Shown one piece after another: positions 1,785 to 21,360 of a stretch of 55,825 nt of DNA. How positions within the stretch are numbered: position 1 is the first letter of the stretch; the number at the start of each line of letters is the position of its first letter. Position numbers and translations under genes: made by a program. A model generated the notes under the pieces. It had not been told where the DNA came from. It saw nothing but the letters and a program-made list of their open reading frames with translations, and made no database searches. Origin of the DNA: Candidatus Yanofskybacteria bacterium (lineage in GTDB: Bacteria; Patescibacteriota; Minisyncoccia; 2-02-FULL-40-12; GWA2-44-9); the NCBI GenBank assembly GCA_016185505.1, contig JACPNL010000010.1:1-55825 (forward strand). Direction: 5' to 3'.

Positions 1785-3665
1785 TTATTCCACAGTTGCC
1801 CGAATTCGGCGGATTCCGGCGCTTACGGATTCTTCTTTGGTTATTTTGAACTTGCCTATCTCGGCAGTGTTTGAAACATGAGGTCCTCCGCACAATTCTT
1901 TAGAAAAGAATTGTCCTGAGCTGGTCGAATTAGAGAGTTCGCGGTTAAACGGCTCAACGGCTTTATCCGTTGAGCCGTTTATTGAATTATCGGTTGTTTT
2001 GGGACCGATCGTATAAACTGTTACGCGATCAGGATATTTTTCTTTGAAAAACGCTAAAGCGCCTGATTTTATCGCATCTTCATAAGACATTTCGGTTTTA
2101 GTAACCGGCAGTTCTTTTTTTACAGCATCGTTAACCATATCCTCTACTTGCTTGAGTTCCTCGAGTGTTAATTTACGCGGGAATGTGAAATCAAACCTCA
2201 ACCGTTCCGGGGTTATATCAGAGCCCTGCTGTTTCACCTCTTCTCCAAGAATTTTTCTCAATGCTGCGTGAAGCAAATGTGTAGCGGTATGAAGACGGGT
2301 TTTCTTTTTCATCTCTTCGGCATTGGCGGCGGTCAAATCCCCTTCCGTTATCATGCCATGTCCACCAAATTTTTTCTCCGCTCCGGCGCGGGATATTTCT
2401 TGATGTTTTCTAAATTCCTCATCGAAATTCTCACGAGAAAGCTCTGTTGTTTTTTCTTTTCCTAATTCTTTAATAACTTCAAAAGGTAGGCCGTAACTTT
2501 CGTATAGTTTAAAGGCGTTCTCGGCATTTACGGATGGCATCTTTCCAAGCTCCTTTAGCCCTTGAGATAATGTCTTTTCAAATTTTTCTTTTTCTCGGTC
2601 AAACTCATGAATTATTAAATCGGCATTCAGTTCGGGATAATATTGCCCATAGATCTCTAATATTTTCGCAAAAATATCATGCATTAAAGATAGGTCAGAC
2701 CTGTGGATAAACGACTTCGCAAGTCGTTTATCCACAGGTGGGGTGGATTGAGTGGCGGTATAAAAATAAGTTATCACTCTCCTCATTAGCCGGCGCAAAA
2801 CATAACCCTGCTCTTTGTTTGACGGCCTGACCCCGTCGGTGATAAGAAATGCGATGGCCCGTGAATGGTCGGCGATAATTCTTTTAGCTCTAATATCTAA
2901 CTCCGAGGGCGCGAGTTTGATTATCGGTTCCAAAAGATCCGTTTCAAAAATATTTTTAACTCCCTGTACAACCATAGCAAGACGCTCTAATCCCATACCG
3001 GTGTCTATGCCAGCTGGTTTTAAGTGTTTAAATTTTGAAGGGTCGGTTTCTTTGAGCATTTGCTCTCTATTCCCTTTATAATAAAATTCGTTGAAGACGA
3101 TATTCCAAATCTCAACTCCGTCCACATATATTTCTGTTGTCGGACCGCATGGACCCTCATTCCCGGTCGGGCCCCAGGTGTTATCCTCAATACCCATTTT
3201 CTTAACCTCAATTGCGACGTTGTTGTTTTTAGCTATTTCTTTCCATATCAATTCTGATTCTTCATCTGCGGGCATACCTTCCGAACCGCTGAAAACAGAA
3301 ACGTAGTCAACCTTGAGTCCCAGTTCTTTTGTAATAAATTCGTATGCCCAAGTGATGGATGCTTCTTTCCAATACCCACCAAAAGAAAAATTGCCAAGCA
3401 TTTCGAAAAAAGTGAGATGTGATTCGTCTCCAACTTCGTCTATGTCCGAAGTTCGCATTGATTTCTGAATTGAAACAGTATTCAAGGAACCGAAATCCTT
3501 CATCGCGTCGGCCTCGCCGGTATAGTAGGGCTTGAACTGTTGCATTCCGGCGGTTGTGAAAAGCACCGACGGATCAGTTGGCAAAAGAGAAGATGACTCC
3601 ACCCACTTATGGTTTCTCTTCTCAAAAAAATCTTTAAATTTTTTACGTATCTTTTGATGTGTCAT
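1785..3665 (-). CDS. alaS: alanine--tRNA ligase (short form, no C-Ala domain)
   Basis: LFTTAGMQQFK, HLTFFEMLGNFSFG, IDTGMGLER, editing motifs HTATHLL and ELCGGPH. Confidence 0.97.
   Translation of the reverse strand: MTHQKIRKKFKDFFEKRNHKWVESSSLLPTDPSVLFTTAGMQQFKPYYTGEADAMKDFGSLNTVSIQKSMRTSDIDEVGDESHLTFFEMLGNFSFGGYWKEASITWAYEFITKELGLKVDYVSVFSGSEGMPADEESELIWKEIAKNNNVAIEVKKMGIEDNTWGPTGNEGPCGPTTEIYVDGVEIWNIVFNEFYYKGNREQMLKETDPSKFKHLKPAGIDTGMGLERLAMVVQGVKNIFETDLLEPIIKLAPSELDIRAKRIIADHSRAIAFLITDGVRPSNKEQGYVLRRLMRRVITYFYTATQSTPPVDKRLAKSFIHRSDLSLMHDIFAKILEIYGQYYPELNADLIIHEFDREKEKFEKTLSQGLKELGKMPSVNAENAFKLYESYGLPFEVIKELGKEKTTELSRENFDEEFRKHQEISRAGAEKKFGGHGMITEGDLTAANAEEMKKKTRLHTATHLLHAALRKILGEEVKQQGSDITPERLRFDFTFPRKLTLEELKQVEDMVNDAVKKELPVTKTEMSYEDAIKSGALAFFKEKYPDRVTVYTIGPKTTDNSINGSTDKAVEPFNRELSNSTSSGQFFSKELCGGPHVSNTAEIGKFKITKEESVSAGIRRIRATVE
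2700..2738. repeat. 39-bp palindromic element, in frame in alaS
   Basis: cctgtggataaacgactt-cgc-aagtcgtttatccacagg encodes PVDKRLAKSFIHR. Also present twice in mnmA. Confidence 0.95.
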
Positions 3666-3704
3666 AAATTAAATATATCAAAACCTTGTCACTTCAACAA
3701 ACAA

Positions 3705-3744
3705 TGTTTCCTAAAACTATCATATGATAGTTTTAGGAAACATT
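3705..3744. repeat. perfect intergenic palindrome (atcatatgat core)
   Basis: atgtttcctaaaactatcatatgatagttttaggaaacat. Related copy at about 46907-46944. Confidence 0.8.
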
Positions 3745-3804
3745 TCAAACTGTTTAATTTCGAATTTCGAATAAAGTCAAATAAAATAAGAGCCGTAATG
3801 GCTC

Positions 3805-5181
3805 TTATGCTAACTTTTCCAGAGTCAACATCTGTGTAAGGGTTGATGGAACTTTGGCCTTTCGCAGGACGTCGCCGAAGTGCGAGGTCAGCCCCACGTT
3901 TCCGCAGACCCGGATGCCGAGGTTCTCCGCCTGCGCCCGCAAGGTCAGCTCCCGGAGCGCTTCCAGGCCGGCTTCGGTATGGAACGTCAGCCAGTCCTTG
4001 GGGATTCCGGGATAGATAATGTTGCCGGCTGTTGCCGTTCTGCCGCGGTGCAACTGGACAACCCAGGCAAGACGGCCGTCGTAGACCCATTCAAAACGGG
4101 CCGGGCCGAGCTTCTCCTGGATCCTCTCGTGTAGGAAGGTAACTTCCCCCTGCACTTGGCTTGGCAGAGCTTCCGGCGCCCTATCGCCAGTCATGAACTT
4201 GTCACCATAACCTCGGCATCCTTCCAGAACCAAATTGTCTGTACTGTCGGTGATGGCCGAGCCGGAGTAGTGCGCTTTCAGGCCGTGCTGGATGATGATT
4301 GCCGCGATCTTACTGTTGTCGGGGTCGTCTTCCTGCATGATGGCGAAGGGGTCTTTCCAGCCGCGGATGGTCTGGAACTTGCCCGGGGTCTGGATCTTGG
4401 GAACGGTCCTGACCCAGTCGGGTTCCTCGCTGTGGATCTTCTTGCCGAAGTTGAACAACGGGATCATCCGGCTGACAACGGTCGTGTACGGGACCGGCAA
4501 GCCGATGACGGCAGCCATGAGCAGGCCATAGGCCTTGTCGCCCATCGCAGAACTCATTCTGTTGGGCCATTCAATTTCGGGAGCAGGCGGCAGAAGCGCG
4601 GGGTCATAGTCCTCGGCCTGCCAGATGATTTGCTTTTCCTGGGCATAGCCGACACGATGCGGATGCACCGAGAACTCCACTCGGTGTGTGCTGGTGAACG
4701 GCATGTGGAACGGGAATCCGTAGACGGCCTTGATGAGGTCAAAGCCGATAGTCCTCGGTAATCTCATGCATCCGGCTTTTTCCACACACCTGGGTGTGTC
4801 GCCGGGCGCGCCTTCCATCAGGTTGCCGAAGAGAACTCCCGAGAAGCCGCCGTCATCAATGCGAACGTTCTCGTTCACGATAACGTAAAGGCCTTGACTA
4901 AGAAATCCTTCAATCATGCCTTTCGCCTCAAGAACGTCGTTGAGGTTCATTTTGAAAGGATTTCCGTCGGGCTTGTCGAGCAGGAACGTTCTGATGTTGA
5001 TCCTGCCGTTGCCGGACTTGGACATGAGGGTGTCCAGCGCCGTATTGACGTCGTTGAACACCTGGTCGGGACTGGTCCCGTTTATGCGCGAGAACCTCTG
5101 GCCTTCAGGGCCGAAGCTCACGAACTGGGCGACGTTGCCGCCTTCTTGGGCGAGTTTGTCGAGAACTTCATCTTTGAACAC
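3805..5181 (-). CDS. ATP-grasp / PPDK-N-like hypothetical protein, GC-rich
   Basis: 458 aa. Two lobes with VNE..GGFSGV / VEFSVH and IQHG..YSG / FEWVYDG..WVVQL signatures. Visibly higher GC than its flanks. Confidence 0.6.
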   Translation of the reverse strand: MFKDEVLDKLAQEGGNVAQFVSFGPEGQRFSRINGTSPDQVFNDVNTALDTLMSKSGNGRINIRTFLLDKPDGNPFKMNLNDVLEAKGMIEGFLSQGLYVIVNENVRIDDGGFSGVLFGNLMEGAPGDTPRCVEKAGCMRLPRTIGFDLIKAVYGFPFHMPFTSTHRVEFSVHPHRVGYAQEKQIIWQAEDYDPALLPPAPEIEWPNRMSSAMGDKAYGLLMAAVIGLPVPYTTVVSRMIPLFNFGKKIHSEEPDWVRTVPKIQTPGKFQTIRGWKDPFAIMQEDDPDNSKIAAIIIQHGLKAHYSGSAITDSTDNLVLEGCRGYGDKFMTGDRAPEALPSQVQGEVTFLHERIQEKLGPARFEWVYDGRLAWVVQLHRGRTATAGNIIYPGIPKDWLTFHTEAGLEALRELTLRAQAENLGIRVCGNVGLTSHFGDVLRKAKVPSTLTQMLTLEKLA

Positions 5182-5214
5182 AATATCCTCTGTTGTTAAA
5201 AATCGTTGGACAAA

Positions 5215-5242
5215 TTATACTAAAGAAGCGTTGACAGTCAAA
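5215..5242 (-). promoter_or_regulatory. sigma70-type promoter of the 3805-5181 gene
   Basis: TTGACT-16 nt-TATAAT on the minus strand. Confidence 0.65.
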
Positions 5243-5375
5243 TAAAAACGGCTAGTTAGCCGTGTTCTAATCACTGATTGCAGATTTCAGCGATCGCTGA
5301 AAAATGCAATTATATTTTTTTCAAACTTCGAATTCGTATAATTCAATTTCTCCATTTCTTAATTTCTAAATATCT

Positions 5376-5636
5376 CTATTTCTTTTCTACCGCCCACGTT
5401 TTTAATTCCTCGTAAGTCGCCTCGCCGCAGATGGTCTTTTGAGTGTCGGTGTTCACAAAAAATGGTACGCCCATACAAATACCTCGGGCTTCGTCGGCCC
5501 ATTTTTTCTCATTGCTCTCGTCGTGCCAGACCTCCATTCGCTGAACTTTAACCCCAAGCTCCTGTTCCAGCTTGTCTATAAGCGGCTCCATCTTTTGGCA
5601 ATGGCCGCATTCTTTACCGTAGAATTCCATTAACAT
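5376..5636 (-). CDS. thioredoxin/glutaredoxin-like protein
   Basis: EFYGKECGHC (CxxC) and cis-Pro GVP motif. Confidence 0.9.
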   Translation of the reverse strand: MLMEFYGKECGHCQKMEPLIDKLEQELGVKVQRMEVWHDESNEKKWADEARGICMGVPFFVNTDTQKTICGEATYEELKTWAVEKK

Positions 5637-5640
5637 GTTT

Positions 5641-5760
5641 CAAATTTAAAATTTAAAAATCAAAATTAAAAATGACAGTTTAAAATTCAAAATGATTTAG
5701 ATTTAAAATTTTAACATTTTTCATTGTCATTTTCCATTTTAATATTTGCATTTTACATTA
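5641..5760. repeat. low-complexity foldback repeat (about 7-nt period)
   Basis: A-rich arm (aaattta/aaatcaa, containing aaaatgaca) faces a T-rich arm (containing tgtcatttt). Confidence 0.7.
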
Positions 5761-5830
5761 TCTAACGCTATTATACCACCCAATAGTTTTTTGAAAAAGT
5801 CCTTCGATAAACTCAGGGCAAGGAGCAACT

Positions 5831-6943
5831 ATGCCAGTGATGAAACACAGGCACCTTGATGGCGATAGAACGATGGTTGAGGCAATGCCTCTTCTTCATT
5901 CCGCAACCCACGACGATTTTTTATTGAAGGCATATCCTTTCGATACGAACCGGTGGTCTGGTCACGCCGAAGCAATATCCCATTGGTTTTTGGAAGGCGG
6001 ACTTCATAAGAACTTAGTCGAAAAATTCAAAGTTACCACCGGCGTAATGCAGAATCCATTCACGATATTTTATGCGGTTAAAAATTTTGTTGTGATAAAC
6101 GGCAGACGAGGATTTTGCGGCGAATTTATAATTGCGCCGCAATATCATGTTTTTGGAGACGCCTGCTGTCCGCAAGGAACGCTTACAGAAAAAGATGTAA
6201 TGAATATTGTGATAAAAGGCATTAAGGCGGGCGAAAAGCAACTGAAAAAAGAGGGCGTGAACACTACGTTTAATGTCTGGTGGGGAATCGGAAGAGAGGT
6301 CTCTCCGGAGGAAGCAGTACGCCTTACTCGAGTAGCGCTGGAGTACGACCCTGATGATGTTCTCGGCATATCACTTGTATGCCATGAACCAAGCGCTCCT
6401 CCGGAGAAATTTGTTGATGCTTTCCGACTCGCCAAAAGAGAAAAGCGGAAGACTGCTTGTCATGTTGAATGGGTTAAAGACAGAAAAGAAAATGAAAAAG
6501 ATACACCCGATAAAATACATAGAAATTTTCAGGAAGATTTGCCGCAACTAACTAAGAATTTAACGACAGCCATTTTTGATCTGGATGTTGACCAGATAGA
6601 CCATGGCTTTGGCCTTGCCGAAAACCCCGAACTCATGAAAGTTGTCGCCGATAAGGGCACAGTAGTTACGGTTTGCCCGGGTTCGCTTCTGACTACTCGG
6701 CTTATTAATAACATCAAAATGCTCAAGATAAGAGAAATGCTTGATGCCGGAATTTTACTTTGCTGGGATGTTGACGATGATATTTGTATGCCCGCTTACA
6801 ACCAACTGGAACAAATGTATAGAGAGGCCTATGCCAAACCGCCTTCAGCCGAAAACCTGGACCGTCTGAAAGAAGACCTTGATAAACTTGAAAGAAATGC
6901 CGAACTGGCATTATTTGGGAACAGAAAAGAACACAAGTGCTAA
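5831..6943 (+). CDS. adenosine/AMP deaminase-family metallohydrolase (divergent)
   Basis: HRHLDG, TACHVE, IDHG, VCPGS and DVDDD motifs. Confidence 0.8.
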   Translation: MPVMKHRHLDGDRTMVEAMPLLHSATHDDFLLKAYPFDTNRWSGHAEAISHWFLEGGLHKNLVEKFKVTTGVMQNPFTIFYAVKNFVVINGRRGFCGEFIIAPQYHVFGDACCPQGTLTEKDVMNIVIKGIKAGEKQLKKEGVNTTFNVWWGIGREVSPEEAVRLTRVALEYDPDDVLGISLVCHEPSAPPEKFVDAFRLAKREKRKTACHVEWVKDRKENEKDTPDKIHRNFQEDLPQLTKNLTTAIFDLDVDQIDHGFGLAENPELMKVVADKGTVVTVCPGSLLTTRLINNIKMLKIREMLDAGILLCWDVDDDICMPAYNQLEQMYREAYAKPPSAENLDRLKEDLDKLERNAELALFGNRKEHKC

Positions 6944-6969
6944 AAAGAAAATCCCCGCTTAAGGCGGGG

Positions 6970-7731
6970 TTAATTATTGCATGCCGGAGCAATATTGTAT
7001 GGGTGCTGGAATTTACCTATATCATGATCATAGACCCACGAACTGTACCAATAAAAGCAATTTATTGGTACGGCAAAATCAATATTTTCGGGAGTACTTT
7101 CACGAGGCACATCGGATGTTCGATATAAACAAAGTTTAAAAGCCAGAGACGTGTTCTTGGCATTGTTATTCATATGAAACGCAACGCCCGGTATATCAGT
7201 GATATATAGCTTAGGATAACTTGGTTTTTCAATACCGTAGAATCTTTCTGTATTTCTACTGACGGACCCTCGTTTGGTATTCCACTTATAGTTGAAATGG
7301 CGTGATTGTGGAGTTGAAAAATATATAGGGTCTGTATCAATCGATTCAACCGTCCAATCTTTATAATTAAAAAAGGACATCTCGCCAAAGTTAATATGAA
7401 CAACTGATTTGGGAAATACTTCCCCGGTATCATGGGAATAATATTTGCACCCCTTAATAAACTGCACAAACGCATAATTCTCAAGATTTTCTACTGTATC
7501 AGTGGTATAATGAGCAAAAAACCGGGTCCCGTAATTCATGCCTCCGCCGACTAGAATCTCATAATCTTCGGCCAAATAGCGTATTTGTGTCAGGTCGCAT
7601 GTGTTTGTGGCGGCGCAGTCGGTGTTATTAAACACCTTCCCGGAACGACTGGTTATTCTTGGATTTCCGCCATATTGGGCCGTTACTGCAACTGACGCTA
7701 AAAGAAACAGCACCACAACAACTTGTTTCAT
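6970..7731 (-). CDS. secreted hypothetical protein
   Basis: 253 aa, N-terminal signal peptide, several Cys. Confidence 0.7.
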   Translation of the reverse strand: MKQVVVVLFLLASVAVTAQYGGNPRITSRSGKVFNNTDCAATNTCDLTQIRYLAEDYEILVGGGMNYGTRFFAHYTTDTVENLENYAFVQFIKGCKYYSHDTGEVFPKSVVHINFGEMSFFNYKDWTVESIDTDPIYFSTPQSRHFNYKWNTKRGSVSRNTERFYGIEKPSYPKLYITDIPGVAFHMNNNAKNTSLAFKLCLYRTSDVPRESTPENIDFAVPINCFYWYSSWVYDHDIGKFQHPYNIAPACNN

Positions 7732-7889
7732 TGTTTAATTCTCAAGGTGCAAACTATTTACAGTATAGATTCTCACAAATCATTCCGTTAAGCAACTCAA
7801 AAAAAACCGCCCTGACTTTATTCATTGAATAGGCGGTTTTTACTTGTCTCAATTTTCCTCGTACGAGGAAAATTGAGACCAATTGTTCC

Positions 7890-7965
7890 TGGGGTGCCCG
7901 ACCGGGATCGAACCGGCAACCGCTCGGACCACAACCGAGTGCTCTACCATTGAGCTACGGGCACC
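7890..7965 (-). tRNA. tRNA-His(GTG)
   Basis: GGTGCCCGTAGCTCAATGG...CTCGG-TTGTGGT-CCGAG...GGTTCGATCC...GGGCACCCCA, with G-1 and encoded CCA. Confidence 0.97.
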
Positions 7966-8007
7966 ATTAAGTGTATATATTTTACACTAAAACGACGCTA
8001 TTGTAAA

Positions 8008-8868
8008 TCATTCTTCATATACCTTCTCGTTCGCCGAGAGCATTAGATCCAGATTATGCAGCAACTCTTCAAATTCATTGTCATCGGCGAAATTTGGATT
8101 TGACCTTATCTTGTCTCTGACTAGTTTTATCGCCTCTTTGTGGCCCTTTTTACCCCTTCGTCTGAAGGCATCGTATTTGTCCAGTATGATTATGAGTTTT
8201 TCGGCTCTGTCAAAAAACACGTTGTCTCCGAAATATTTGGTGAACCTGCCGTCTTTGTCTACTATTTCTTCCGGATTTATACCTTCCAGCATATGATGAG
8301 TTGCCGCAGCGGCGACTGCTTCCGGCGGCACACCGTCACCGCTGATTATTTCAAGCGTCCATTTCGGATGAAGATTATAGAATTCTCGCATTGATATCTC
8401 TCCGTCTATTCCCATTTCTTTCAGCATTGCCAATCTGTCAGTTGCGTCTTCCGCGAAATTATCGTTGATGAATTGCTCCAGCGTTACTTTTGTGGGATCT
8501 ATAATGCCTTCTATCTCGTAAATATCCAGCATGAGTTTCTCCTGTTCCGATGTGGCATTCCGAGGACCGGTCTTACCAATATCCGTGAACATCGTGCCTA
8601 TCAAAACAGTTCTCTGCTCTGTGTCGGTAAATTTTTCATCAGGTAAATTCTTTTCATAATATCTGAACAGTGCCCGAGCTACGTGAACAGACCGCTCCTC
8701 GTCCTTGAACGTTTCTGTTCTGTCATTCAGAAGAAGAAGTTTTCTGACAATATTCGGATTCATTTTCTCCACATCAAGGCCGAGCTCTTCAAAAAGTTCC
8801 CTCATGTGGTCTCGTTCGGCCTCAAATCCAGTTTGTGACGTTGTCATATGTTCTTTGATCATCTTCAT
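8008..8868 (-). CDS. HD-domain-like protein (degenerate HD)
   Basis: FTDIGK, HPKW, ATHH, LDKYDA pattern of HD/HD-GYP folds. Confidence 0.65.
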   Translation of the reverse strand: MKMIKEHMTTSQTGFEAERDHMRELFEELGLDVEKMNPNIVRKLLLLNDRTETFKDEERSVHVARALFRYYEKNLPDEKFTDTEQRTVLIGTMFTDIGKTGPRNATSEQEKLMLDIYEIEGIIDPTKVTLEQFINDNFAEDATDRLAMLKEMGIDGEISMREFYNLHPKWTLEIISGDGVPPEAVAAAATHHMLEGINPEEIVDKDGRFTKYFGDNVFFDRAEKLIIILDKYDAFRRRGKKGHKEAIKLVRDKIRSNPNFADDNEFEELLHNLDLMLSANEKVYEE

Positions 8869-9228
8869 TATTTTAATACTTGGGATGAAAATTTAAAGAC
8901 CCCTATTGGGGCCTCTTGTATCTTATCACGAAAAACAAACTCCGTATTTTTCACAAGCTAACACAAAATCTCTGATAAAAGGACCCTCTATCATGTCTAA
9001 TAAATTATGCCGTCTTCCTTGTGTTTTTATCCATGCCCCCGTCTTTTTTAAGAAAGAGGAATTCGGAGAATTTATCCCACGGATAGCGACTTATTACGGA
9101 TAACCGCTCAAGGTGTTCGGGGCCTTGCATAGATAAAAATCGTCCATCAAAAGACACCCGCAACTTTCTCACTTAGCGCTCCGTATACACCCCATAAAAC
9201 AAAAGGTCAACGAGTGTTGATAAGATCA

Positions 9229-9257
9229 TTGACTTTTCACATACCATTTGCTATTCT
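9229..9257 (+). promoter_or_regulatory. sigma70 promoter with no downstream ORF
   Basis: TTGACT-17 nt-TATTCT with extended TG. Confidence 0.55.
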
Positions 9258-9438
9258 TACATCATAAACGGCTTCGGCCTCGAAACACCCGCAAGGGTGT
9301 TTCAGACTTTTAGGGCTTAAAGAGCTTTTACCGCCTTATCCAGTTTATTGAATTGGTCTTCGGGCAGAGTGGCTATTTTATCTAATCCATCATCTGATTT
9401 TCTTGCGTCCCCCTTTGTGACGAATTCGGCCTATAATT

Positions 9439-9477
9439 TCGGGCCGCCCAGAGTCGAACTGGGTCTAACTGGTCCCA
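9439..9477 (-). pseudogene. orphan 3' half of tRNA-Pro(TGG)
   Basis: 39 bp matching 9712-9750 with one mismatch, beginning at the anticodon. Confidence 0.85.
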
Positions 9478-9504
9478 CCCTGAAGTAGAATTTTGCGAAT
9501 CTTG

Positions 9505-9907
9505 TCGGACTGCCCGGATTCGAACCGGGACTAACCTACAACTTTGACCTCTTTCCGTCGGTCAAGTCGCAGGCCCGCCTCATGGCTGAAAATCGCCGAT
9601 TGCGATTTTCAGCATCGCTCCGGCACTTGAATCGTAAAGAAAACATAAAGCAGTTTATGTTTTCTTTACGATTCAAGCATCCCAACCTATGGTAGAATTT
9701 GGCCTAATATGTCGGGCCGCCCAGAATCGAACTGGGTCTAACTGGTCCCAAACCAGTCGTACCACCATCATACGCCGGCCCGATTAAGAGCCAAATTCTA
9801 CCATAGGTCAAGAACGTCTCGCCTGCCCCGCACCAACCCCGCCCCCTTTTTGAATGGCGGTCAGCGGATAAGGTTGGTGCGGGGTGCTACCGTTACACTA
9901 CAGTCCG
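9505..9907 (-). tRNA. split/interrupted tRNA-Pro-like gene (5' half 9907-9884, 3' half 9535-9505)
   Basis: CGGACTG-TA-GTGTAACGGTAGCAC ... TAGTCCCGGTTCGAATCCGGG-CAGTCCG-A. Perfect 7-bp acceptor stem with Pro identity (C1-G72, A73). About 350-nt insert in the anticodon arm. Anticodon not determinable. Confidence 0.75.
9712..9782 (-). tRNA. tRNA-Pro(TGG), nested inside the split tRNA
   Basis: CGGGCCG...ACTGG-TTTGGGA-CCAGT...CCCAGTTCGATTCTGGG-CGGCCCG-A. Confidence 0.93.
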
Positions 9908-9944
9908 GTCTTAACGCAAAATTCACTACGAAACTTAATTTTTG

Positions 9945-10016
9945 TCTCCTCGCGAGGAATCGAACCTCGATTCGCGGCTTAGAAGGCCGCTGTTTTATCC
10001 GTTAAACTACGAGGAG
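9945..10016 (-). tRNA. tRNA-Arg(TCT)
   Basis: CTCCTCG...GCGGC-CTTCTAA-GCCGC...CGAGGTTCGATTCCTCG-CGAGGAG-A. Confidence 0.95.
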
Positions 10017-10336
10017 GTTGATTTTTTGCCTAAATTTAAAAACTGATTATAACTTTTACGTCTGTGACAATTGGCACATCGTATCTTGCACTTTTTAATT
10101 TCTAAGAGTATAGATCTCCAGGAATTATGTCCCGATAACATTTTTGCAATCGGCCTTCTTTTCCGACTAGGATTTATATGATCAAAATCTAGAACTCTAG
10201 GATCTTTTTCCCCACAATCAACACATTTTTTATTTGATAAAAAAGCTGCCATTTGCTCTCTTATCCTAATTCTGTATCTCTTTTGTGCTTTATATAATTG
10301 TTCCCTGTATTTGTATGGCATTTTTGGGTTATACAC
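10007..10336 (-). CDS. HNH endonuclease-like protein
   Basis: CVDCG..LDFDH..KC..RCANCH. The stop codon lies inside the 5' end of tRNA-Arg. Confidence 0.85.
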   Translation of the reverse strand: MYNPKMPYKYREQLYKAQKRYRIRIREQMAAFLSNKKCVDCGEKDPRVLDFDHINPSRKRRPIAKMLSGHNSWRSILLEIKKCKIRCANCHRRKSYNQFLNLGKKSTSS

Positions 10337-10363
10337 TACCTATTCTAACCCGACTTTGATTGC

Positions 10364-10402
10364 ATTACAAGCTATCTGTTCTGTCCATTGAACTACGAGG
10401 GG
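10364..10402 (-). pseudogene. orphan 5' half of a tRNA-Arg-like gene
   Basis: CCCCTCG-TA-GTTCAATGGACAGAAC-A-GATAG-CTTGTAA, with no matching 3' stem or T arm afterwards. Confidence 0.7.
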
Positions 10403-10493
10403 AAATTTTTGTGTTAATTTTACCACATTTTGCCTCGTATATCAAAATTTATGGGGTTTTACTTATTTCATAAAATATGATAAATCATTGTAC

Positions 10494-11849: not shown

Positions 11850-11915
11850 ATGATAAATAAGTTATGTAATATGATGTTTTTGTTTAGGAATTAAAAAACG
11901 GAATTAAGATTCCGT

Positions 11916-13645: not shown

Positions 13646-13714
13646 TTACGCGTCAGATTATTAATCAGTATGGCTTAAAAAGCCATATTTTTATTGGCGC
13701 CGGAGAATGGTGGT

Positions 13715-13788
13715 TGGAGCGGGTAAGGGGATTTGCACCCCTGCCAATTGCTTGGAAGGCAATTATACTACTACTATACGATACCCGC
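13715..13788 (-). tRNA. tRNA-Gly(TCC) with non-canonical D and T loops
   Basis: GCGGGTA...ATTGC-CTTCCAA-GCAAT...AGGGG-TGCAAAT-CCCCT-TACCCGC-TCCA. Confidence 0.9.
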
Positions 13789-13849
13789 GGATAAATCTTA
13801 TTTTACCACATAAAGACCCTCTTTAATAGAGGGTTTAATTGCAAAAAGA

Positions 13850-15139
13850 TTATCGAGTGTGATTTAAAATTTGAATTGCTTGGAGACAATCGCCATTGGT
13901 TCTTATAAACGGGATCCCTTTTATATTCAGCCCGAGCTCTTTGGAGATTTTCAGAACGGCATTGTGGCCGGAACGCATCAAATGGGCCGCTTGAGCTTGA
14001 GTAAAGTTGGTGAAGTCGAAAGGAATCGCTTGTTCCGGATTAGAGATCATCACTCTTTGCGGCGCGTGCTTGTCATGAAGACGCAAGCGACCATAATTCA
14101 TATCATCGAGTATGCCGTCTAAAAGTTTTAAAACAACATCTATGTCTTCGGGACGGCTAGACAACTGCTTGGCTTTTGCCAATTCCTCTCTGGCAACGGC
14201 AATCTTGTTTTTTGTGTTTATCTCTGCGTCAATTCGATCCTGTACGTTGAGGATTAACCGATCATGAGTCGTAGACCGTATTGATAACGCTCTTAAAATC
14301 CTCGTGAGAATGTCGTAATGAGTATTTATGTCAAAATCGCCGATCTGCACTCCTTGGATGTCAAATATAAATATGACATTATAACCGATCGGCTCTCTTA
14401 TGGCCTCGTCTATAAGAAGACCGGAGCTATATCCCCCATCTATCAGAAGGAGGTTATCAAAATCCGGATGAGTTTTGTCAACAAGTTTCAGTTCTTTTGG
14501 ATGATCAATGGTCGTGGCTGGAAATTGAGGCACAAGCCCCATCGAACCTAGAATGGCCGGAAAAAGCCAATCCTTATGCTCCGGAATTTTATTGGAGAAG
14601 ACAACCTGTTGACCTGTCCAAAAGTCTGTCGCCCCGATTTTCATCAAAATAGCGTCCGGCCCAAATATTCTATCCAGGTACGGCCAGGTGTGTTTTATGA
14701 GAAGAGCGCATAGAACTTTATTATCGATAATATGGCCCGCTTTGATCTTTTCCAATAGTTCTTTGGTTTTACCTAGGTCCTGGAATAAACCCTTTCTTTC
14801 TTGAGCCAAAGCTTTCCACTCTAGAATGCCAGCCCCCTTAAGGTGCAAAATCATGTCGATCACTTTGGAGAGGTGTTTTACGCTCTTGAAATCCTCCATA
14901 TTGCCGACAATGTCTTGCGGGGTAATTCTTAACAGAATGTCACAAAGTTTTCTTTCTTCGCCTATGCAACTCAAAACGGCGACAGGAGAAGGGCCGGATA
15001 CGGCATATATACCGGCAAGATCATGTCCATTTAGACGAAGGATTTTTCTCAAAGTTCGAACCGCCTGCCCACAGAAAAATAGATTATCAGGTCCGCCGCG
15101 ACAAACGGCGGCGAACAGAGCGCCTTCTTGAAATTGCAT
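13850..15139 (-). CDS. patatin-like phospholipase (divergent)
   Basis: CRGG, AVSGPS, ATD..TG and LIDGG motifs. Likely start MQFQEG at 15139. Confidence 0.65.
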   Translation of the reverse strand: MQFQEGALFAAVCRGGPDNLFFCGQAVRTLRKILRLNGHDLAGIYAVSGPSPVAVLSCIGEERKLCDILLRITPQDIVGNMEDFKSVKHLSKVIDMILHLKGAGILEWKALAQERKGLFQDLGKTKELLEKIKAGHIIDNKVLCALLIKHTWPYLDRIFGPDAILMKIGATDFWTGQQVVFSNKIPEHKDWLFPAILGSMGLVPQFPATTIDHPKELKLVDKTHPDFDNLLLIDGGYSSGLLIDEAIREPIGYNVIFIFDIQGVQIGDFDINTHYDILTRILRALSIRSTTHDRLILNVQDRIDAEINTKNKIAVAREELAKAKQLSSRPEDIDVVLKLLDGILDDMNYGRLRLHDKHAPQRVMISNPEQAIPFDFTNFTQAQAAHLMRSGHNAVLKISKELGLNIKGIPFIRTNGDCLQAIQILNHTR

Positions 15140-15285
15140 ATTCTCTCCAATTGTCAAAGACCCGTATACTCTTGCTATACAACAAATAACAAAAAACCGC
15201 AACCGTAACGGTTGGGTTTTTGTTAAAAACAATATTTCAGATCTGAAATATTCGTATGTGCCTATTCGTTAAGGCTATTCGCATA

Positions 15286-15567
15286 CTACTTAATTGCTTC
15301 TTTGAGCAACTTACCGGCGGTGAATCTCGGCTTCTTGGAGGCTTTGATCTGAATGGTCTCGCCTGTTCGAGGATTTCTGCCCTCTCTGGCTTTCCTGTCG
15401 GCAACCTTGAAGATACCAAAACCGGTAATGTTGACCTTGTCGCCTTTTCTCAAAGCGTCGGTGACCATGTCAACAAAAGCGTCTAACCATTCCACGCCCT
15501 GTTTGTTGGTAACACCCATCTTTTCAGCCAACATTTTGGCTAATTGTCCCTTTTTTACAGTTTGCAT
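15286..15567 (-). CDS. hup: histone-like DNA-binding protein HU
   Basis: GFGIF..RKAREGRNPRTGETIQI..PRFTAGK. Confidence 0.97.
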   Translation of the reverse strand: MQTVKKGQLAKMLAEKMGVTNKQGVEWLDAFVDMVTDALRKGDKVNITGFGIFKVADRKAREGRNPRTGETIQIKASKKPRFTAGKLLKEAIK

Positions 15568-15920
15568 TTATTTATATGTAATTAAGTAATTGATAATTGG
15601 GTAATTTATTGCCTCTAACCTCTGACCATAATTACCTAATTACCTAATTACTTAATGACTATCTTGTTTATTTAACTATTCTTAAATGACCTCTCTATTC
15701 GACCCCTAGGGAGGACTATTTACTTACTTTTTGTATTCTCTAGGTTTTATGCGGAAAATGCAAGCCCCGCCTATCAACAGGGCTTGATTGTTGATAGGCG
15801 GGGTTTAATATTTCCTTAATTTTGTCGCTTTCAGCGACCATGGGACTTTTCCATAAACCTCGGAAACGCGAGAAAAATTTAGTCACTCAGGATTCGTTAA
15901 TTAAGATTATCAACAATTTC

Positions 15921-16037
15921 TTGACTTTCTATGCTTAAGCATGCTATATTTAATGTGTGCTTGCGGAGCGTAAGCTCCTATCAACATCAGAGTTGATAGC
16001 AAGCATACTAAAAAACCGCCTTTTACGGCGATTTTTT
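15921..16037 (+). ncRNA. candidate small RNA with promoter and terminator
   Basis: TTGACT..TGcTATATT, then a three-way junction (gtgtgcttgc/gcaagcatac enclosing two hairpins), then a bidirectional terminator. Confidence 0.35.
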
Positions 16038-16421
16038 AGTATCTTTTTGCATTATGCTGTAGAAGTGTTTATTGCCGTTGCCGACTTGTCTGATTATTAA
16101 CTTTATAGTGATTATCCCGAAAGTATTTATGAGAGCCCATTCTTTTATAATCTTGCCTTTCTTTTTCTTCTCTCTATAATCTTCTATTACTTTAGATTCT
16201 AATATTATTCTCTTGGCAAACGGTATCAACCCAAATCTTCTTTTTTGTTCGTTTCTCGATCTGATCTTTAGTTTTCTGATAAGATGCCCGAAGCCAGTGG
16301 CATTGAAATATATCTTTTCACTATCTAATATTGGACAAACAACTTCCCCAATTTTCTTATAGATAGATTTGGCTATTCTTTTTGTTCTTTTGTATCCAAA
16401 ACTTTTCGGTATTTTCTTCAT
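16023..16421 (-). CDS. basic hypothetical protein, possibly RelE/barnase-like nuclease fold
   Basis: 132 aa, Lys-rich. FNATGFGHL and KLIIRQVGNGNKHFYSI pattern. The fold is inferred. Confidence 0.5.
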   Translation of the reverse strand: MKKIPKSFGYKRTKRIAKSIYKKIGEVVCPILDSEKIYFNATGFGHLIRKLKIRSRNEQKRRFGLIPFAKRIILESKVIEDYREKKKKGKIIKEWALINTFGIITIKLIIRQVGNGNKHFYSIMQKDTKKSP

Positions 16422-16435
16422 AACTTGAAAATCTA

Positions 16436-17968
16436 CTACCTTGCGTATTCTATCGCCCTCGTTTCGCGTATGACATTAACCTTTATTTCTCCCGGATATT
16501 TCATTTCTTCCTCTATTTTCTTAGCAATGTCTTTAGCCATTTTCAGGGCGCTCAAGTCGTCTATTTTAGTAGGTGTGACGAATATTCTTAATTCTCGGCC
16601 TGCTTGTATGGCGTAGGATTTATCCACTCCATCAAAAGAGTTGGATATTCTTTCCAAGTCCTCCAAACGCTTTAAATATATCTCTACCGTATCGCGCCTT
16701 GCCCCCGGTCTTGCGCCGGATATGGCATCTGCCGTTTGTACCACTCTTGATTCAAGAGTTACATACGGGTATTCCTCGTGATGAGCTTCCATTCCCTGAA
16801 TGGCTCTTGGATCAATTCCGAATTTTTGGAGTATCTTCCTCCCTATTTCCACGTGAGTTCCCTGCACTTCATGGTCAACCGCCTTGCCTATGTCGTGGAA
16901 AAGCGCCGCTTTTTTAGTGATAGGAACATCCAGCCCCAATTCCGCGGCAAGCATTCCCGCTATGTGAGTCATCTCTATAGAGTGAAGAAGTACATTCTGC
17001 CCGAAACTGGTCCTGAACGCTAATCGACCAAGCAAGTACGTTAGTTTTGGATCCATCGGACCGACGCCGGTCTCGAATAGCGCCGCCTCTCCCGCCTCCT
17101 TTATCTTTTCGTTTATCTCGCTTTTTGCTTTTTCAACCATCTCTTCGATCTTCGCCGGATGTATCCTCCCGTCGGCTATCAGTTTGTCTATCGCCAATTT
17201 CGCTATCTGTCTCCGGACGGGATCATAACCCGAAACCACCAGCGCTTCGGGGGTATCATCTATAATGATATCAACGCCGGTAAGCCGCTCTATTGTCTTG
17301 ATATTTCTCCCCTCCTTGCCGATTATCTTTCCCTTTACTTCATCGGAAGGCAAACTAACCACCGTTGTTGTTACATCGGCTATATGAGAAGCCGCGTAGC
17401 GTTGAATAGCCGTGGTCAATATCTCGCGGGCCTTCTTGTCTAATTCTTCCTTATTCTCCTGCTCAAGCCGTTTGAGCTGCTTGTACAGATCGTCTTTATA
17501 TTCCTCTTCAACTCTGGACAGCATCTCGCCTCTGGCTTGATCTCTGTTCAGACCGGATATTTTTTCCAGTTCTCCGAGTTGCTTTGACTTAACCTGTTCA
17601 AGTTCGGTTTTCGCGGTTGCAAGCTCGGTGTTTTTGGCTTTTAAGGTTTCTTTTTCTTCGGTTAGTTCTTTTGCTCTTGATTCAAGCTCACTTTCTTTCT
17701 TGGTCAAAATATTCTCTATTCTTGAGAGTTGGACATTGCGTTCTTTCTCTTCTTTTTTAGCATCTTCTAAAACCTTAATAGCCCTGTTTTTGGCTTCAAG
17801 GAGTATGTCCTGCGACTTTGATTTTGAATCGTTGAGTATTGCCTCGGCCTTTGACTCCGCCGAGCTTACGCTCTTACTTGCTAGAAGTTGCCTGACAAGG
17901 TACCCGATTATTATACCAGGTAATAACGCTGAAACTGCCGCTACGAGAGGGCTTAGTTGTGAAAACAT
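16436..17968 (-). CDS. rny: ribonuclease Y
   Basis: TM anchor, coiled coil, KH (KGKIIGKEGRNI), HD (HDIGK), YAIQAGRE. Confidence 0.98.
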   Translation of the reverse strand: MFSQLSPLVAAVSALLPGIIIGYLVRQLLASKSVSSAESKAEAILNDSKSKSQDILLEAKNRAIKVLEDAKKEEKERNVQLSRIENILTKKESELESRAKELTEEKETLKAKNTELATAKTELEQVKSKQLGELEKISGLNRDQARGEMLSRVEEEYKDDLYKQLKRLEQENKEELDKKAREILTTAIQRYAASHIADVTTTVVSLPSDEVKGKIIGKEGRNIKTIERLTGVDIIIDDTPEALVVSGYDPVRRQIAKLAIDKLIADGRIHPAKIEEMVEKAKSEINEKIKEAGEAALFETGVGPMDPKLTYLLGRLAFRTSFGQNVLLHSIEMTHIAGMLAAELGLDVPITKKAALFHDIGKAVDHEVQGTHVEIGRKILQKFGIDPRAIQGMEAHHEEYPYVTLESRVVQTADAISGARPGARRDTVEIYLKRLEDLERISNSFDGVDKSYAIQAGRELRIFVTPTKIDDLSALKMAKDIAKKIEEEMKYPGEIKVNVIRETRAIEYAR

Positions 17969-18138
17969 GTTGTTTGATTAGTGTCATTAAGTATGTAGAA
18001 TGCGGTATGTTGAATGTAGTATTTTTATAAAATTTTGATGTCCTTACGACATTCCACTTTCTACTCTCTACACTCTTAAAATTGAACTAAATTAAAACTT
18101 CTCTTTCATTATAGCAGAGAATAAAATATAATGCAAAT

Positions 18139-19707
18139 ATGAAACCTGTCGTTCTAACAATTCTTGACGGCTGGGGATACTCGCCGCAAAAACACGGCAA
18201 TGCTATTTTATACGCGCGGACGCCTTTTGTTGAGCTCATTCAGCGCAATTATCCTTCTTTGCTTTTACAGGCCTCGGGAAAAGCGGTGGGGATGACTTGG
18301 GGCGAGGCGGGCAATAGCGAGGTCGGCCACTTGACTATCGGCGCGGGCAGAACCATATTTCAATATCTAAGCCGGATAAATAAAGCCATAAGCGACGGCA
18401 GTTTTTACCAAAACGAAGCGCTATTGGGAGCAGTCAAACACGCTAAGGAAAATTATTCTACTCTCCATGTTGCCGGTCTTTTGACATCCGGCTCGGTACA
18501 TGCCCACATCAGTCATTTATTGGCGCTAATAGACCTGGCTGCCAAGAATGATTTTGCTAACATCAGAATTCATCTTTTTACCGATGGCAAGGACTCTGGA
18601 CTGAAAGAAGCGCCGTTCTTGATCAAAAAGTTCCAAGATCATGCCTCTAAGGTTGGAGTTGGGGTGATAACGACGCTTATTGGCAGGGATTACGCGATGG
18701 ATAGGGCTAAGAATTGGGATGACACAAGAAAAGCATACGATCTCCTCGTCCGCGGAGCAGGAGATCCCGTAAAATCACAAGGCGATAACGGGGCAGGAAA
18801 AACAGACGATATCTTTTCAAAAATAGAGACGGCATACCAGATGGGATACATTGATTCTAATTTGCCCCCATTGATAACCGACAAACAAGGCGTCATTAAA
18901 GACGGCGACGCGTTGATATTCTTCAACTTCAGAGAGGACTCGATGCGCCAGCTCACAAGAAGTTTCATAGAAGATGACTTCCAAATTTTTCCGGTGGAAA
19001 AATTTGGCAATTTATATGTCGTTACCATGACCCAATACCTTGATGATCCCCGCCTAAAAGTCGCCTTTCCTTTGCCGGAAATAAAAAACGGCCTTGCGGA
19101 AGTTTTAGCCTTGAACGGAAAAACTCAACTGCATATTGCTGAATCGGAAAAGTACGCCCACGCCACGTATTTCTTTAATGGCTTGAATAACACGCCTTAT
19201 TCCGGCGAAACGGATATATTTATAGAATCATTAAAAGACCACGCTCTTAATCCGGAAATGAGAGCTCCTGACATAGCGGATAAAGTAATAGAATATCTAA
19301 AACAGGATCAGTATGACTTTTATATCATAAATTTTGCCAATCCGGACGTTTTGGCGCATACCGGAGACCTGGAGACGACAATAAGAGGAGTAGAGACGAT
19401 AGACGAAGCGTTAAAACAAATAACAGAAGCCGTCTTGAACAAAGAAGGTATGATGCTCATTACAGCCGACCACGGTAACGCGGAGTCAATGGTGTATGAG
19501 TCCTCGGGTGAGAAAAAGTCAAGACACGAAGAAAGCCCTGTGCCTTTCTATCTAATAGGCAAACAGTTCGCGAGAGAACGCGAAATAGAAGAGGTTGAAA
19601 AGTCCTTCTCGCAAGTCAGTGGCATATTGAGTGATATCGCGCCCACCGTGCTGGAATTAATGGAAATACCAAAACCCGAAGAAATGACAGGGAACTCTCT
19701 TTTGTAA
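18139..19707 (+). CDS. gpmI: 2,3-bisphosphoglycerate-independent phosphoglycerate mutase
   Basis: ILDGWG, GNSEVGH, GRDYAMDR, NFRED, EKYAH, TADHGNAE. Confidence 0.97.
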   Translation: MKPVVLTILDGWGYSPQKHGNAILYARTPFVELIQRNYPSLLLQASGKAVGMTWGEAGNSEVGHLTIGAGRTIFQYLSRINKAISDGSFYQNEALLGAVKHAKENYSTLHVAGLLTSGSVHAHISHLLALIDLAAKNDFANIRIHLFTDGKDSGLKEAPFLIKKFQDHASKVGVGVITTLIGRDYAMDRAKNWDDTRKAYDLLVRGAGDPVKSQGDNGAGKTDDIFSKIETAYQMGYIDSNLPPLITDKQGVIKDGDALIFFNFREDSMRQLTRSFIEDDFQIFPVEKFGNLYVVTMTQYLDDPRLKVAFPLPEIKNGLAEVLALNGKTQLHIAESEKYAHATYFFNGLNNTPYSGETDIFIESLKDHALNPEMRAPDIADKVIEYLKQDQYDFYIINFANPDVLAHTGDLETTIRGVETIDEALKQITEAVLNKEGMMLITADHGNAESMVYESSGEKKSRHEESPVPFYLIGKQFAREREIEEVEKSFSQVSGILSDIAPTVLELMEIPKPEEMTGNSLL

Positions 19708-19782
19708 TTACTGACATAATCGCAAAAGAACAAATTTTTGAGTTTGTTTAGAATTTACCAATTGACGCGTTAAAGTCTGCTA

Positions 19783-20190
19783 TTAATCTTCGTATGTTTT
19801 TTTATATCCACTAATTTGTCCGGATATTGCTAAGAGATTCGAGCCAATGATTTTTAATAAAGCGGCCACTTTGGTTGTATTCGGATTAGCCGCATACCGT
19901 TTGATAACTTCATTTATGGCTTCTCCCGCCTCCCATTCATCTTGCGCTTCTGAAACAACAAATTCAAAATTTACAACTTGCTGAAGTTGGCTGACTGTAT
20001 CTGTATCTTTGATTTGCTTATCTCTAAGAAGCATCCTTATCCCCACATCTGCTTTTAAGAGAGTCTTATTATCTTTCTCCAATTCAAAGAACCGTTCGCC
20101 TTCTAGATTATACATATCTTGAAACTCTTTGCTGATTTCATCTGTTTCGGCGGTGTTAGCAGGCGGTAATTTTTCTTTTATATTTGTCAT
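19783..20190 (-). CDS. hypothetical protein
   Basis: 135-aa ORF directly downstream of mnmA. Confidence 0.6.
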   Translation of the reverse strand: MTNIKEKLPPANTAETDEISKEFQDMYNLEGERFFELEKDNKTLLKADVGIRMLLRDKQIKDTDTVSQLQQVVNFEFVVSEAQDEWEAGEAINEVIKRYAANPNTTKVAALLKIIGSNLLAISGQISGYKKTYED

Positions 20191-20202
20191 AGTATATTTA
20201 TC

Positions 20203-21360
20203 TTACAATATTATTCCCCCTCCGAGAAGCTGCTGACCTTTATAAAATACGGCTGATTGACCGGGGGTTACGGCTGACTCTGGTTTTTTGAACACGATTT
20301 CGCCACTATTTTTTACAACCGCTTTAGACAACGGCGCCCTATAGCGCGTCCGCGCATCCAACTCCTCGCCCCTGTGGATAAACGACTTGCGAAGTCGTTT
20401 ATCCACAGGTTGAGCTATTGGATTTATCCAGTTTATAGCGGTTAATTTGAAATTTTGAGAGAGTAGATCTTTCTTCGAACCGACGTAAATGATGTTATTT
20501 TTGATATCTTTCCTAACAACAAAATAGGGGCCCTTGCCGTTCTTTATATCCAGACCGTGCCTTTGGCCGATGGTATAGTAGAACACGCCATCGTGTTGTC
20601 CAACAACACGCCCTGAGCGAGCAAAACGAGTCGAATGGGCAACATCCAACAAGATAATATTTCCGATCTTTGGCTTGATATAATTTTTTAAAAATTCTTT
20701 CATGTTTAACGGCCCGATGAAGCACACTCCCTGGCTATCTTTCTTGTCAGCCGTCGACAGGCCGAATTTTTTAGCCATTCTCCTAACCTCCGGTTTTGTA
20801 TAGTCACCAATCGGAAAGAAGCAATGTTTCAACTGCCTCTGGGTTAAGGTCCAGAGAAAATAGGATTGATCTTTGTTCTGGTCAACAGCTTTTAATAATT
20901 TATAGTCATTAATTTTTAATTTTTCATTTTTATTTTTTAATTTTCTTATGTAGTGTCCCGTCGCAATGTAATCCGCTCCTTCTTCCAATGCCTTCTCCAA
21001 AAATAGCCCGAACTTGATATGCTTATTGCACATTACATCCGGATTAGGCGTTTGACCGGTTTTATATTCTCGTATCATGTAGTCAGCCACTTCTTTTTTA
21101 TATTCTTGTGAAAAGTCCCACGTCAAAAGAGGAATGCCAATTTTTGCCGCTACCCGCATCGCGTCTTCTCGGTCTTGCTTCCAAAGACACCTGTGGATAA
21201 ACGACTTCGCAAGTCGTTTATCCACAGGTGGGCTCCATGGTTTCATAAAAACACCGGTTACATCGTAACCTTGTTTTTTCAACAGAGCAGCAGCCACAGA
21301 AGAGTCAACTCCTCCGGACATAGCAACATAAATCTTTTGTTTTTTAACTTGACGTTTCAT
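20203..21360 (-). CDS. mnmA: tRNA 2-thiouridylase MnmA
   Basis: AMSGGVDSS, TPNPDVMCN, ATGHY, KDQSYFL, DSQGVCF, TPGQSAVFY. Confidence 0.98.
   Translation of the reverse strand: MKRQVKKQKIYVAMSGGVDSSVAAALLKKQGYDVTGVFMKPWSPPVDKRLAKSFIHRCLWKQDREDAMRVAAKIGIPLLTWDFSQEYKKEVADYMIREYKTGQTPNPDVMCNKHIKFGLFLEKALEEGADYIATGHYIRKLKNKNEKLKINDYKLLKAVDQNKDQSYFLWTLTQRQLKHCFFPIGDYTKPEVRRMAKKFGLSTADKKDSQGVCFIGPLNMKEFLKNYIKPKIGNIILLDVAHSTRFARSGRVVGQHDGVFYYTIGQRHGLDIKNGKGPYFVVRKDIKNNIIYVGSKKDLLSQNFKLTAINWINPIAQPVDKRLRKSFIHRGEELDARTRYRAPLSKAVVKNSGEIVFKKPESAVTPGQSAVFYKGQQLLGGGIIL
20371..20409. repeat. 39-bp palindromic element, in frame in mnmA (opposite orientation)
   Basis: Loop reads gcg on +. Encodes PVDKRLRKSFIHR. 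Confidence 0.95.
21190..21228. repeat. 39-bp palindromic element, in frame in mnmA
   Basis: Identical to 2700-2738. Encodes PVDKRLAKSFIHR. Confidence 0.95.

Follow-up and report, generated by a model that had tools for sequence, protein, structure and literature searches.

A 39-bp palindrome inserted in frame in tRNA-enzyme genes of a Yanofskybacteria genome, a probable REP-type repeat linked to a RAYT-like transposase gene

Background

Systems in which repetitive extragenic palindromic sequences (REPs) accompany a REP-associated tyrosine transposase (RAYT), known as REPtrons, are already described, as are REPs lying inside genes, including those of tRNA synthetases (PMC3733652, in the part of its text available). 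According to the available portion of PMC8266576, the RAYTs studied bind single-stranded REP hairpins and cleave and rejoin them, with the 5' tetranucleotide of the repeat helping to choose the cut site; in one system a change from GTAG to GTGG shifted cutting to CC, and activity in vitro has been shown for only a few proteobacterial enzymes. Here we report a 39-bp palindrome in a 55,825-nt stretch of DNA from Candidatus Yanofskybacteria bacterium (assembly GCA_016185505.1, contig JACPNL010000010.1), referred to as the window. Three of its copies stand in frame in genes of core tRNA enzymes, one in alaS and two in mnmA, and further copies are dispersed over the genome, two of them bracketing a RAYT-like transposase gene. 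The palindrome is very probably a REP-type hairpin repeat of a REP/RAYT (REPtron) system.

The closest counterpart is the group-3 TnpA-REP of Stenotrophomonas maltophilia with its perfect-palindrome REPs, as far as the accessible parts of PMC8266576 and PMC3333891 describe it. Both systems have a single Y1/HUH gene with a Y---NP motif bracketed by inverted copies of a dispersed hairpin repeat, a core with an 8-bp perfect stem and a 3-nt loop following a tetranucleotide, lineage-specific repeats, and no target duplication. The present system differs in its tag, GTGG instead of GTAG, and in that tag and spacer are themselves paired, so that one 39-bp palindrome shows the same REP on both strands. 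Moreover, an extragenic location is expected of REPs, whereas here 12 of 28 copies lie inside open reading frames (ORFs) and 3 more supply a stop codon; the protein scores under the NCBIfam cut-off for RAYTs, and the host is a 0.7-Mb groundwater bacterium. As for intragenic repeats, the available text of Di Nocera et al. (2013, PMC3733652) places GTAG/CGTC REPs inside known genes, including those of tRNA synthetases and a tRNA pseudouridine synthase, with some genes hit twice, and treats copies at ORF 5' ends as probably extragenic, all of which has a parallel here. In comparison with these repeats, the present family combines a high intragenic share with orthologous coding sites that can be traced over species and genera and with coding copies that evolve in concert.

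For Pseudomonas REPINs, it has been proposed that repeats are overwritten at positions that stay conserved (REPORTH preprint 10.1101/2024.10.14.618302, available part); there, as here, the position is kept and the sequence shifts to the predominant type of the genome. The REPORTH work, however, concerns strains less than 4% apart and extragenic spaces, whereas the distances here reach ~0.8 substitutions per neutral site and essential coding sequence is included. IS200/IS605 elements and their miniature derivatives also have Y1/HUH chemistry acting on single-stranded hairpins and leave no target duplication. According to the accessible text of PMC6006769, the Y---NP context of the catalytic tyrosine, found here, defines the TnpA-REP class, in contrast to Y---Q in IS200; furthermore, no TnpB was found here, and the gene is single-copy and syntenic.

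The palindrome had also been likened to Rickettsia palindromic elements in an earlier interpretation made from the letters of the window (the sequence-only reading). The analogy is fair: here too, palindromes have been inserted into functional genes without loss of frame. RPE-1 units are about 100-150 bp long and are not known to have a cognate transposase; here, in contrast, the unit has 39 bp and brackets a RAYT-like gene. In Rickettsia, the proteins encoded by the interrupted genes likewise tolerate the in-frame repeats and remain functional (PMC3733652, available text). Literature searches on REPs or RAYTs together with Patescibacteria or the Candidate Phyla Radiation returned no paper linking them.

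Copies in the window and insertion sites

The window is contig C8 of the genome (G000), which totals 681 kb in 32 contigs and is rated 95% complete; the Pfam scan covered 140 of 700 ORFs and a further 23 selected ones. The exact palindrome is present at all three positions (Table 1) reported by the sequence-only reading, the mnmA copy near the C terminus (C-site) having its 3-nt loop inverted and matching exactly on the minus strand. Two 18-bp arms form a perfect palindrome around a CGC/GCG loop, with an RNA fold of -28 kcal/mol (z -11.5), and no match to the 39-mer occurs in 100 dinucleotide-preserving shuffles. The unit has 13 codons and is stop-free in the frame used in both orientations, as had been claimed: frames 1 and 2 are open, encoding the basic peptide PVDKRL(A/R)KSFIHR and LWIND(F/L)(A/R)SRLST, respectively, and frame 3 holds a TAA. 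The latter is used only where the element terminates an ORF and by none of the internal coding copies.

For comparison, three congeners (sister species G001-G003) and two other genera (G004 and G009) were used. The copies in AlaS and near the N terminus of MnmA (N-site) are filled in this species alone, the sites being empty in all 3 congeners and in both other genera, which bears out the claim that the palindrome adds residues in frame to unrelated core enzymes. The MnmA C-site, at the start of the C-terminal barrel domain, is filled in 4/4 congeneric species, each with its own variant, and empty in 2/2 other genera. None of the 150 MnmA homologues listed from a 1.8-billion-protein library contains the peptide. 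In an alignment covering 108 of the 150, the C-site has at most 4 residues in 96 sequences, compared with 13 here, and the N-site corresponds to a loop of 2-28 residues. The N-site copy itself occupies the variable loop following FMKPW, where it replaces ~4 native codons. Alignment gaps against solved structures (7 and 11 residues for MnmA, 2HMA; 17 residues for AlaRS, 9JC7) suggest that the inserts lie in surface loops.

Among other coding copies, a frame-2 copy in a 609-aa protein is found at the same site in G003 with well-conserved flanks. For the PlsY-like host of another frame-2 copy, protein and Pfam-family searches gave no orthologue in the 5 relatives; this gene may lie in a region acquired by this species alone. 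No target duplication was seen at the copies inspected, which fits HUH-type rather than DDE-type elements. In G001, the mnmA loop homologous to the N-site (locus L014) carries four tandem 8-bp units (GAAATATC) in place of the palindrome; thus, the kind of repeat gathered by this loop differs from species to species.

Four DNA runs of one study, examined as contigs and possibly the source of the assembly, contain no listed form lacking the 39 bp; no RNA run was among the sequencing runs listed for the stretch. Their contigs break within the palindromes, and one of them (X2 record 16, 18940-21218) spans the MnmA C-site copy. Joints between the two mnmA copies also appear in run contigs; with sides of just 20-23 letters, they were taken as repeat artefacts.

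Table 1. Positions of the repeat copies, host genes and other features discussed in the text (C1 to C29, contigs of genome G000)
Feature	Position	Strand	Description
alaS host gene	window 1785..3665	-	626 aa; tRNA-synt_2c (residues 5-438) and tRNA_SAD by Pfam, i.e. AlaRS
REP copy in alaS	window 2700..2738	+	loop CGC on + strand; in frame, PVDKRLAKSFIHR = residues 310-322; this species only
mnmA host gene	window 20203..21360	-	385 aa; tRNA_Me_trans HUP, PRC-barrel and beta-barrel domains (Pfam)
REP copy in mnmA, C-site	window 20371..20409	-	loop GCG on + strand; in frame, PVDKRLRKSFIHR = residues 318-330
REP copy in mnmA, N-site	window 21190..21228	+	loop CGC on + strand; in frame, PVDKRLAKSFIHR = residues 45-57; this species only
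Inverted doublet of GACTT-CGC-AAGTC	window 29228..29258		between ORFs 27071-29218(+) and 29278-29718(+)
Inverted doublet of GACTT-CGC-AAGTC	window 43790..43820		between ORFs 43045-43695(-) and 43834-46266(-)
RAYT-like Y1 (HUH) transposase gene	G000:C3:19795-20481	-	229 aa; Pfam Y1_Tnp; outside the window
Segment 3' of the RAYT-like gene	G000:C3:18237-19791		1.5 kb
PlsY-like host of a frame-2 copy	G000:C1:12460-13641
Second-family copies	window 23420-23486, 35696-35776; G000:C1:20624-20707, C7:23371-23412, C11:26842-26910
Peptidase_C39_2-like ORF	window 35512-36390		holds a second-family copy in frame
Y1_Tnp paralogue	G000:C29:23418-24020		38% identical to the RAYT-like protein
Palindrome of the paralogue	C29:22823-22847, 23386-23406; C11:24371; C26:10224		CCTGTGGAGGGC(G/C)GCCCTCCACAGG
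24-bp palindrome	G000:C3:35065-35088; window 54997-55020; C19:387; C25:14212		GGAGGGTACAGT(A/C)CTGTACCCTCC
Further long perfect palindromes	window 7846-7879, 46905-46946, 3703-3744, 35468-35517, 9626-9677
rve-type integrase-core matches	G000:C12:1200-1460; C16:831-1103		contigs <2 kb
ksgA/rsmA-like gene	G000:C7:51500-52440		split over two frames
RVT_1 reverse transcriptase and bAvd-like ORF	G000:C4 (L028:3788-4804, 4831-5202)	minus, plus

Genome-wide census

The family has 28 copies in the genome, 20 of the 39-bp type and 8 long composites. Among the former, 17 have perfect arms and are identical except for loop orientation (10 CGC and 7 GCG on the plus strand), 2 are variants adjoining the transposase gene, and 1 is degenerate. 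The long forms measure 109, 111 or 123 bp, have the same ends as the 39-mer, and include one degenerate copy. The 12 copies internal to ORFs comprise 7 short, 3 long and 2 degenerate ones, the last being in GT2 genes, and at least 10 intact copies stand inside conserved ORFs. Their hosts are AlaS, MnmA (two copies), TGT, a class-V aminotransferase (IscS-like), a PlsY-like protein, a 609-aa membrane protein, a 716-aa TPR protein, and a Wzy_C-like protein (two copies). As for the remainder, 5 copies fall within the first 22 codons of an ORF and probably sit upstream of the true start, 3 provide the TAA stop of the upstream ORF, and 8 are intergenic. A dense cluster, at 14.5-21 kb of contig C3, contains the RAYT-like gene.

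A nominal enrichment of tRNA enzymes among the hosts (3/6 genes, binomial p 0.006 at an assumed 7% background) was post hoc and is not relied on. Just downstream of one copy lies a ksgA/rsmA-like gene split over two frames in a short NFQ-rich repeat stretch, which reflects either a frameshift or an assembly error.

RAYT-like gene and its hairpins

As the sequence-only reading had stated, the window holds no cognate transposase among the transposase families searched. The RAYT that it proposed to look for is encoded on another contig, where the palindrome brackets the gene on both sides: a variant 3 bp past the stop codon and a canonical copy 33 bp before the start. The protein matches Y1_Tnp of Pfam with 38.9 bits against a cut-off of 23, and its PNHYHLLL (HUH motif, H85 and H87) and YIHFNP motifs do not vary among 13 homologues. 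Each of the 4 congeners has one close copy of the gene, with orthologous flanks. Look-alikes of the protein are commonest in Minisyncoccota, and 33 of 61 related genomes have homologues of the gene.

The hairpins vary together with the gene. In 10 of the 12 best homologue loci, perfect hairpins are located within ~60 bp of the gene, on both sides in 9 and on one side in 1; their stems are lineage-specific with a common CGAC...GTCG core. With a degenerate core pattern, the four congeners give 20, 18, 21 and 14 matches and two genomes of genus g5 give 12 and 8, whereas no other genome exceeds 4. A RAYT match is present in each of the 11 genomes that have two or more core hairpins, and the 28 RAYT-negative genomes have at most one hairpin, the genomes in this count being kin and not independent. 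Pairing is complete in each of the 5 abundant hairpin variants, which differ in the base pairs used at 4 variable positions. Nearly all copies carry the tag GTGG; a single G001 copy has GTAG, and a subfamily in G003 has GTTG.

If it works like the RAYTs studied so far, the RAYT-like enzyme would bind the folded single-stranded hairpin, the recognised core presumably being the 8-bp stem ACGACTT.. with its 3-nt loop and CC-T-GTGG-ATA ahead of it on either strand; CC-T-GTGG does precede the core hairpin on both strands here. Strand cleavage next to the hairpin, followed by rejoining, would move or overwrite the repeats, and the same reaction would both seed new copies and replace resident ones. 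Since the unit is stop-free in two of three frames in both orientations and ORFs make up ~87% of the genome, insertions in tolerant gene loops would survive and be translated, the inserts thus forming putative passenger peptides. Most sites are old and common to several species, with the sequence at each held to the current master variant of its genome by concerted evolution.

Two further observations concern this locus and its protein family. Directly 3' of the RAYT-like gene, two variant palindromes enclose a 1.5-kb segment, whose two or three ORFs belong to no known family; G001 and G003 have a single palindrome there. A second Y1_Tnp paralogue on another contig adjoins a different palindrome, which has only the outer CCTGTGGA..TCCACAGG in common with the main family (Table 1).

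Age of the sites and concerted evolution

Copies in G001-G003 were sampled by likeness (at most 1 mismatch to the arm of this genome, plus the mnmA loci), which gave 29 copies. According to flank searches, 25 of them stand at 15 of the 28 sites of this genome, including the MnmA C-site, TGT and the IscS-like gene; the other 4 are non-orthologous or unresolved. The recent spread that had been read from the identity of the copies therefore stands for the species-specific AlaS and MnmA N-site copies, which show that new sites are still being gained, but not for most of the family. Because 25/29 sister copies are orthologous, copy identity reflects homogenisation or constraint, and within-genome identity gives no date for the insertions.

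The junctions agree in 17 orthologous pairs of short copies, for which average identity is 65% in the 120-bp flanks and 90.5% in the elements. Four-fold degenerate third positions of MnmA, TGT and the IscS-like gene are 47-52% identical between species (25% is expected by chance), corresponding to ~0.8 substitutions per site. Differences between species are compensatory arm or loop changes common to the copies of one genome; for example, this genome has the arm variant AAACGACTT, G003 has AATCGACTT, and G002 has AAACGACAT together with a TGA/TCA loop. Loop inversions between species at the same site are also found, and G001 is a mosaic of two types with one chimeric copy whose arms are of different types. 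Orthologous copies stay open in up to four species even though the variants alter residues (e.g. K to N paired with F to I). Beyond the genus, the TGT site is filled in G036 (genus g5) as well, with the g5 core hairpin and a residual TCCACAGG, and the GT4 and GT2 genes of two g5 species hold different variants at the same sites. Element identity far above that of the flanks, together with species-specific compensatory variants, indicates concerted evolution of the copies, probably driven by RAYT-linked overwriting.

Long forms and a second repeat family

The long forms are 39-mers with a 70-, 72- or 84-bp unit of a second repeat family in the loop. This family has the layout TCCCGAT - variable hairpin - ATCGAGGATCCTCGAT - variable hairpin - ATCGGGA and about 40 core matches. 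No Rfam match was obtained for it, and none at gathering score for a long-form locus. Copies of the second family are also found in frame, in a Peptidase_C39_2-like ORF, NusA, an IleRS-like gene and TGT. Composite and second-family units have lengths divisible by 3 in 9/10 cases inside ORFs compared with 7/20 elsewhere (Fisher one-sided p 0.0056; the degenerate copy on contig C21 is excluded). This bias speaks indirectly for translation of the inserts, as do the avoidance of the stop frame by internal coding copies and the orthologous copies that stay open in up to four species.

Five sites with a composite in this genome have a plain 39-mer in relatives, and the composites group in near-identical subfamilies, which suggests that whole units replace residents at existing sites. 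Nested insertion is preferred to the opposite course, in which the short form would have arisen from the long one by deletion. In the TPR protein, a copy of an additional 24-bp palindrome (Table 1) directly follows the 123-bp composite in frame and adds GGYSTVPS relative to G003.

A broader proposal is made tentatively and falls somewhat short of being probable. RAYT-linked copy-over may keep ~20 repeats identical across ~0.8 substitutions per neutral site, including copies in essential genes (mnmA, tgt, the iscS-like gene and membrane-protein genes), such that 13-residue segments of unrelated proteins evolve in concert; the present family, together with at least one other palindromic family of the genome, may be a general source of in-frame insertions in these small-genome bacteria.

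Alternative explanations and points against the REP/RAYT assignment

Several results weigh against a REP/RAYT origin of the palindromes or against the part assigned to overwriting. The best NCBIfam model for the transposase is indeed REP_Tyr_transpos (E 7.9e-13), with 48.5 bits, below the curated cut-off of 80; matches to solved Y1 transposases are weak (ISDra2 transposase, E 0.03, HUH region only), and the tag of the repeat is GTGG where GTAG would be canonical. Simple cut-and-paste does not explain the copies in the IscS-like gene, TGT and the MnmA N-site, which replace native codons instead of adding a clean 39 bp. Likeness-based sampling of the relatives favours conserved copies, gene calls comprise ORFs of at least 70 aa only, and the assembly is in 32 contigs. 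Homogenisation could also stem from RecA-type gene conversion or from selection by another binder. Finally, each arm contains a perfect DnaA-box 9-mer, TTATCCACA.

The last point leads to the alternative that survives best, although it is unlikely: the palindromes would be kept mainly as host DNA sites, either paired DnaA boxes that titrate DnaA or targets of another dimeric binder, and the link with the transposase would be secondary. As many as 52 of the 76 perfect genome copies of TTATCCACA are in elements, the 24 outside exceed the ~7 expected, and one perfect box is located in the AT-rich dnaA-dnaN spacer. Conservation far above neutral would fit a functional site, and within the element GTGGATA varies least between the four species. 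Sister genera, however, have no DnaA box there but retain the hairpin core and the bracketed gene, and in subfamilies the box is broken while palindromy is kept (GTTG..CAAC in G003 and GTAG..CTAC in G001). Nor do the copies cluster around dnaA, which is at ~35-36 kb of contig C7, the copy clusters being on C1 and C3. Another repeat family has only CCTGTGGA..TCCACAGG in common with the 39-mer, which points to a transposase tag rather than a DnaA box, and species-wide variant switches require copying between sites, beyond what selection does.

Even less probable is that the repeats are kept as RNA hairpins acting in transcript ends, mRNA protection or ribosome pausing. Within-genome identity covers the sequence, beyond the structure, no Rfam family is matched, and copies are found in either orientation and within domains of essential genes, for which a strong hairpin brings no evident benefit. 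These observations outweigh the stability of the hairpin (-28 kcal/mol), the 3 copies at ORF 3' ends that supply a stop codon, the 5 just upstream of likely starts, and the location of REPs elsewhere mostly downstream of genes (PMC3733652, available text).

It is hardly credible that the palindrome has no relation to the Y1 gene and is instead a miniature inverted-repeat element derived from a DDE transposon: the element does end in perfect 18-bp inverted repeats, and two rve-type integrase-core matches exist on small contigs, but target-site duplication is absent at all copies inspected, the two rve contigs lack arm motifs, and neither DDE_Tnp_1 nor TnpB nor a parent transposon with the same ends was found (only a few transposase families were searched, with Pfam on part of the ORFs). 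The rve matches themselves are probably insertion-sequence fragments at assembly breaks.

Other repeats and features

Relatives of the core hairpin GACTT-CGC-AAGTC occur between ORFs in the window, as previously noted, in the form of inverted doublets (Table 1). An Rfam scan of the window gave nothing at gathering score except 4 tRNAs. The window has five further long perfect palindromes, two of which are members of multi-copy families also present on other contigs (GTCTCAATTTTCCTCGTACGAGG.. and TTCTACGAAATTATCATATGATAATTTCGTAGAA). On contig C4, a reverse transcriptase (RVT_1) adjoins a bAvd-like ORF, which is the layout of a diversity-generating retroelement.

Implications

The noteworthy traits of this REP-type family are its symmetric 13-codon unit, its high intragenic share, and its concerted evolution at deep orthologous coding sites. 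As for the copies in essential enzymes, every change of the DNA is also an amino-acid change in the enzyme. For the study of how REPs spread and why they persist, this lineage offers a compact natural test bed: a symmetric REP in a tiny genome, with dated gains (AlaS and the MnmA N-site), sites kept over species and genera, and half-converted and mosaic states still visible. For annotators, identical 13-residue motifs in unrelated proteins call for caution, since they may be repeat-derived. The family also gives a concrete way in which some of the extra protein loops of these bacteria can arise.

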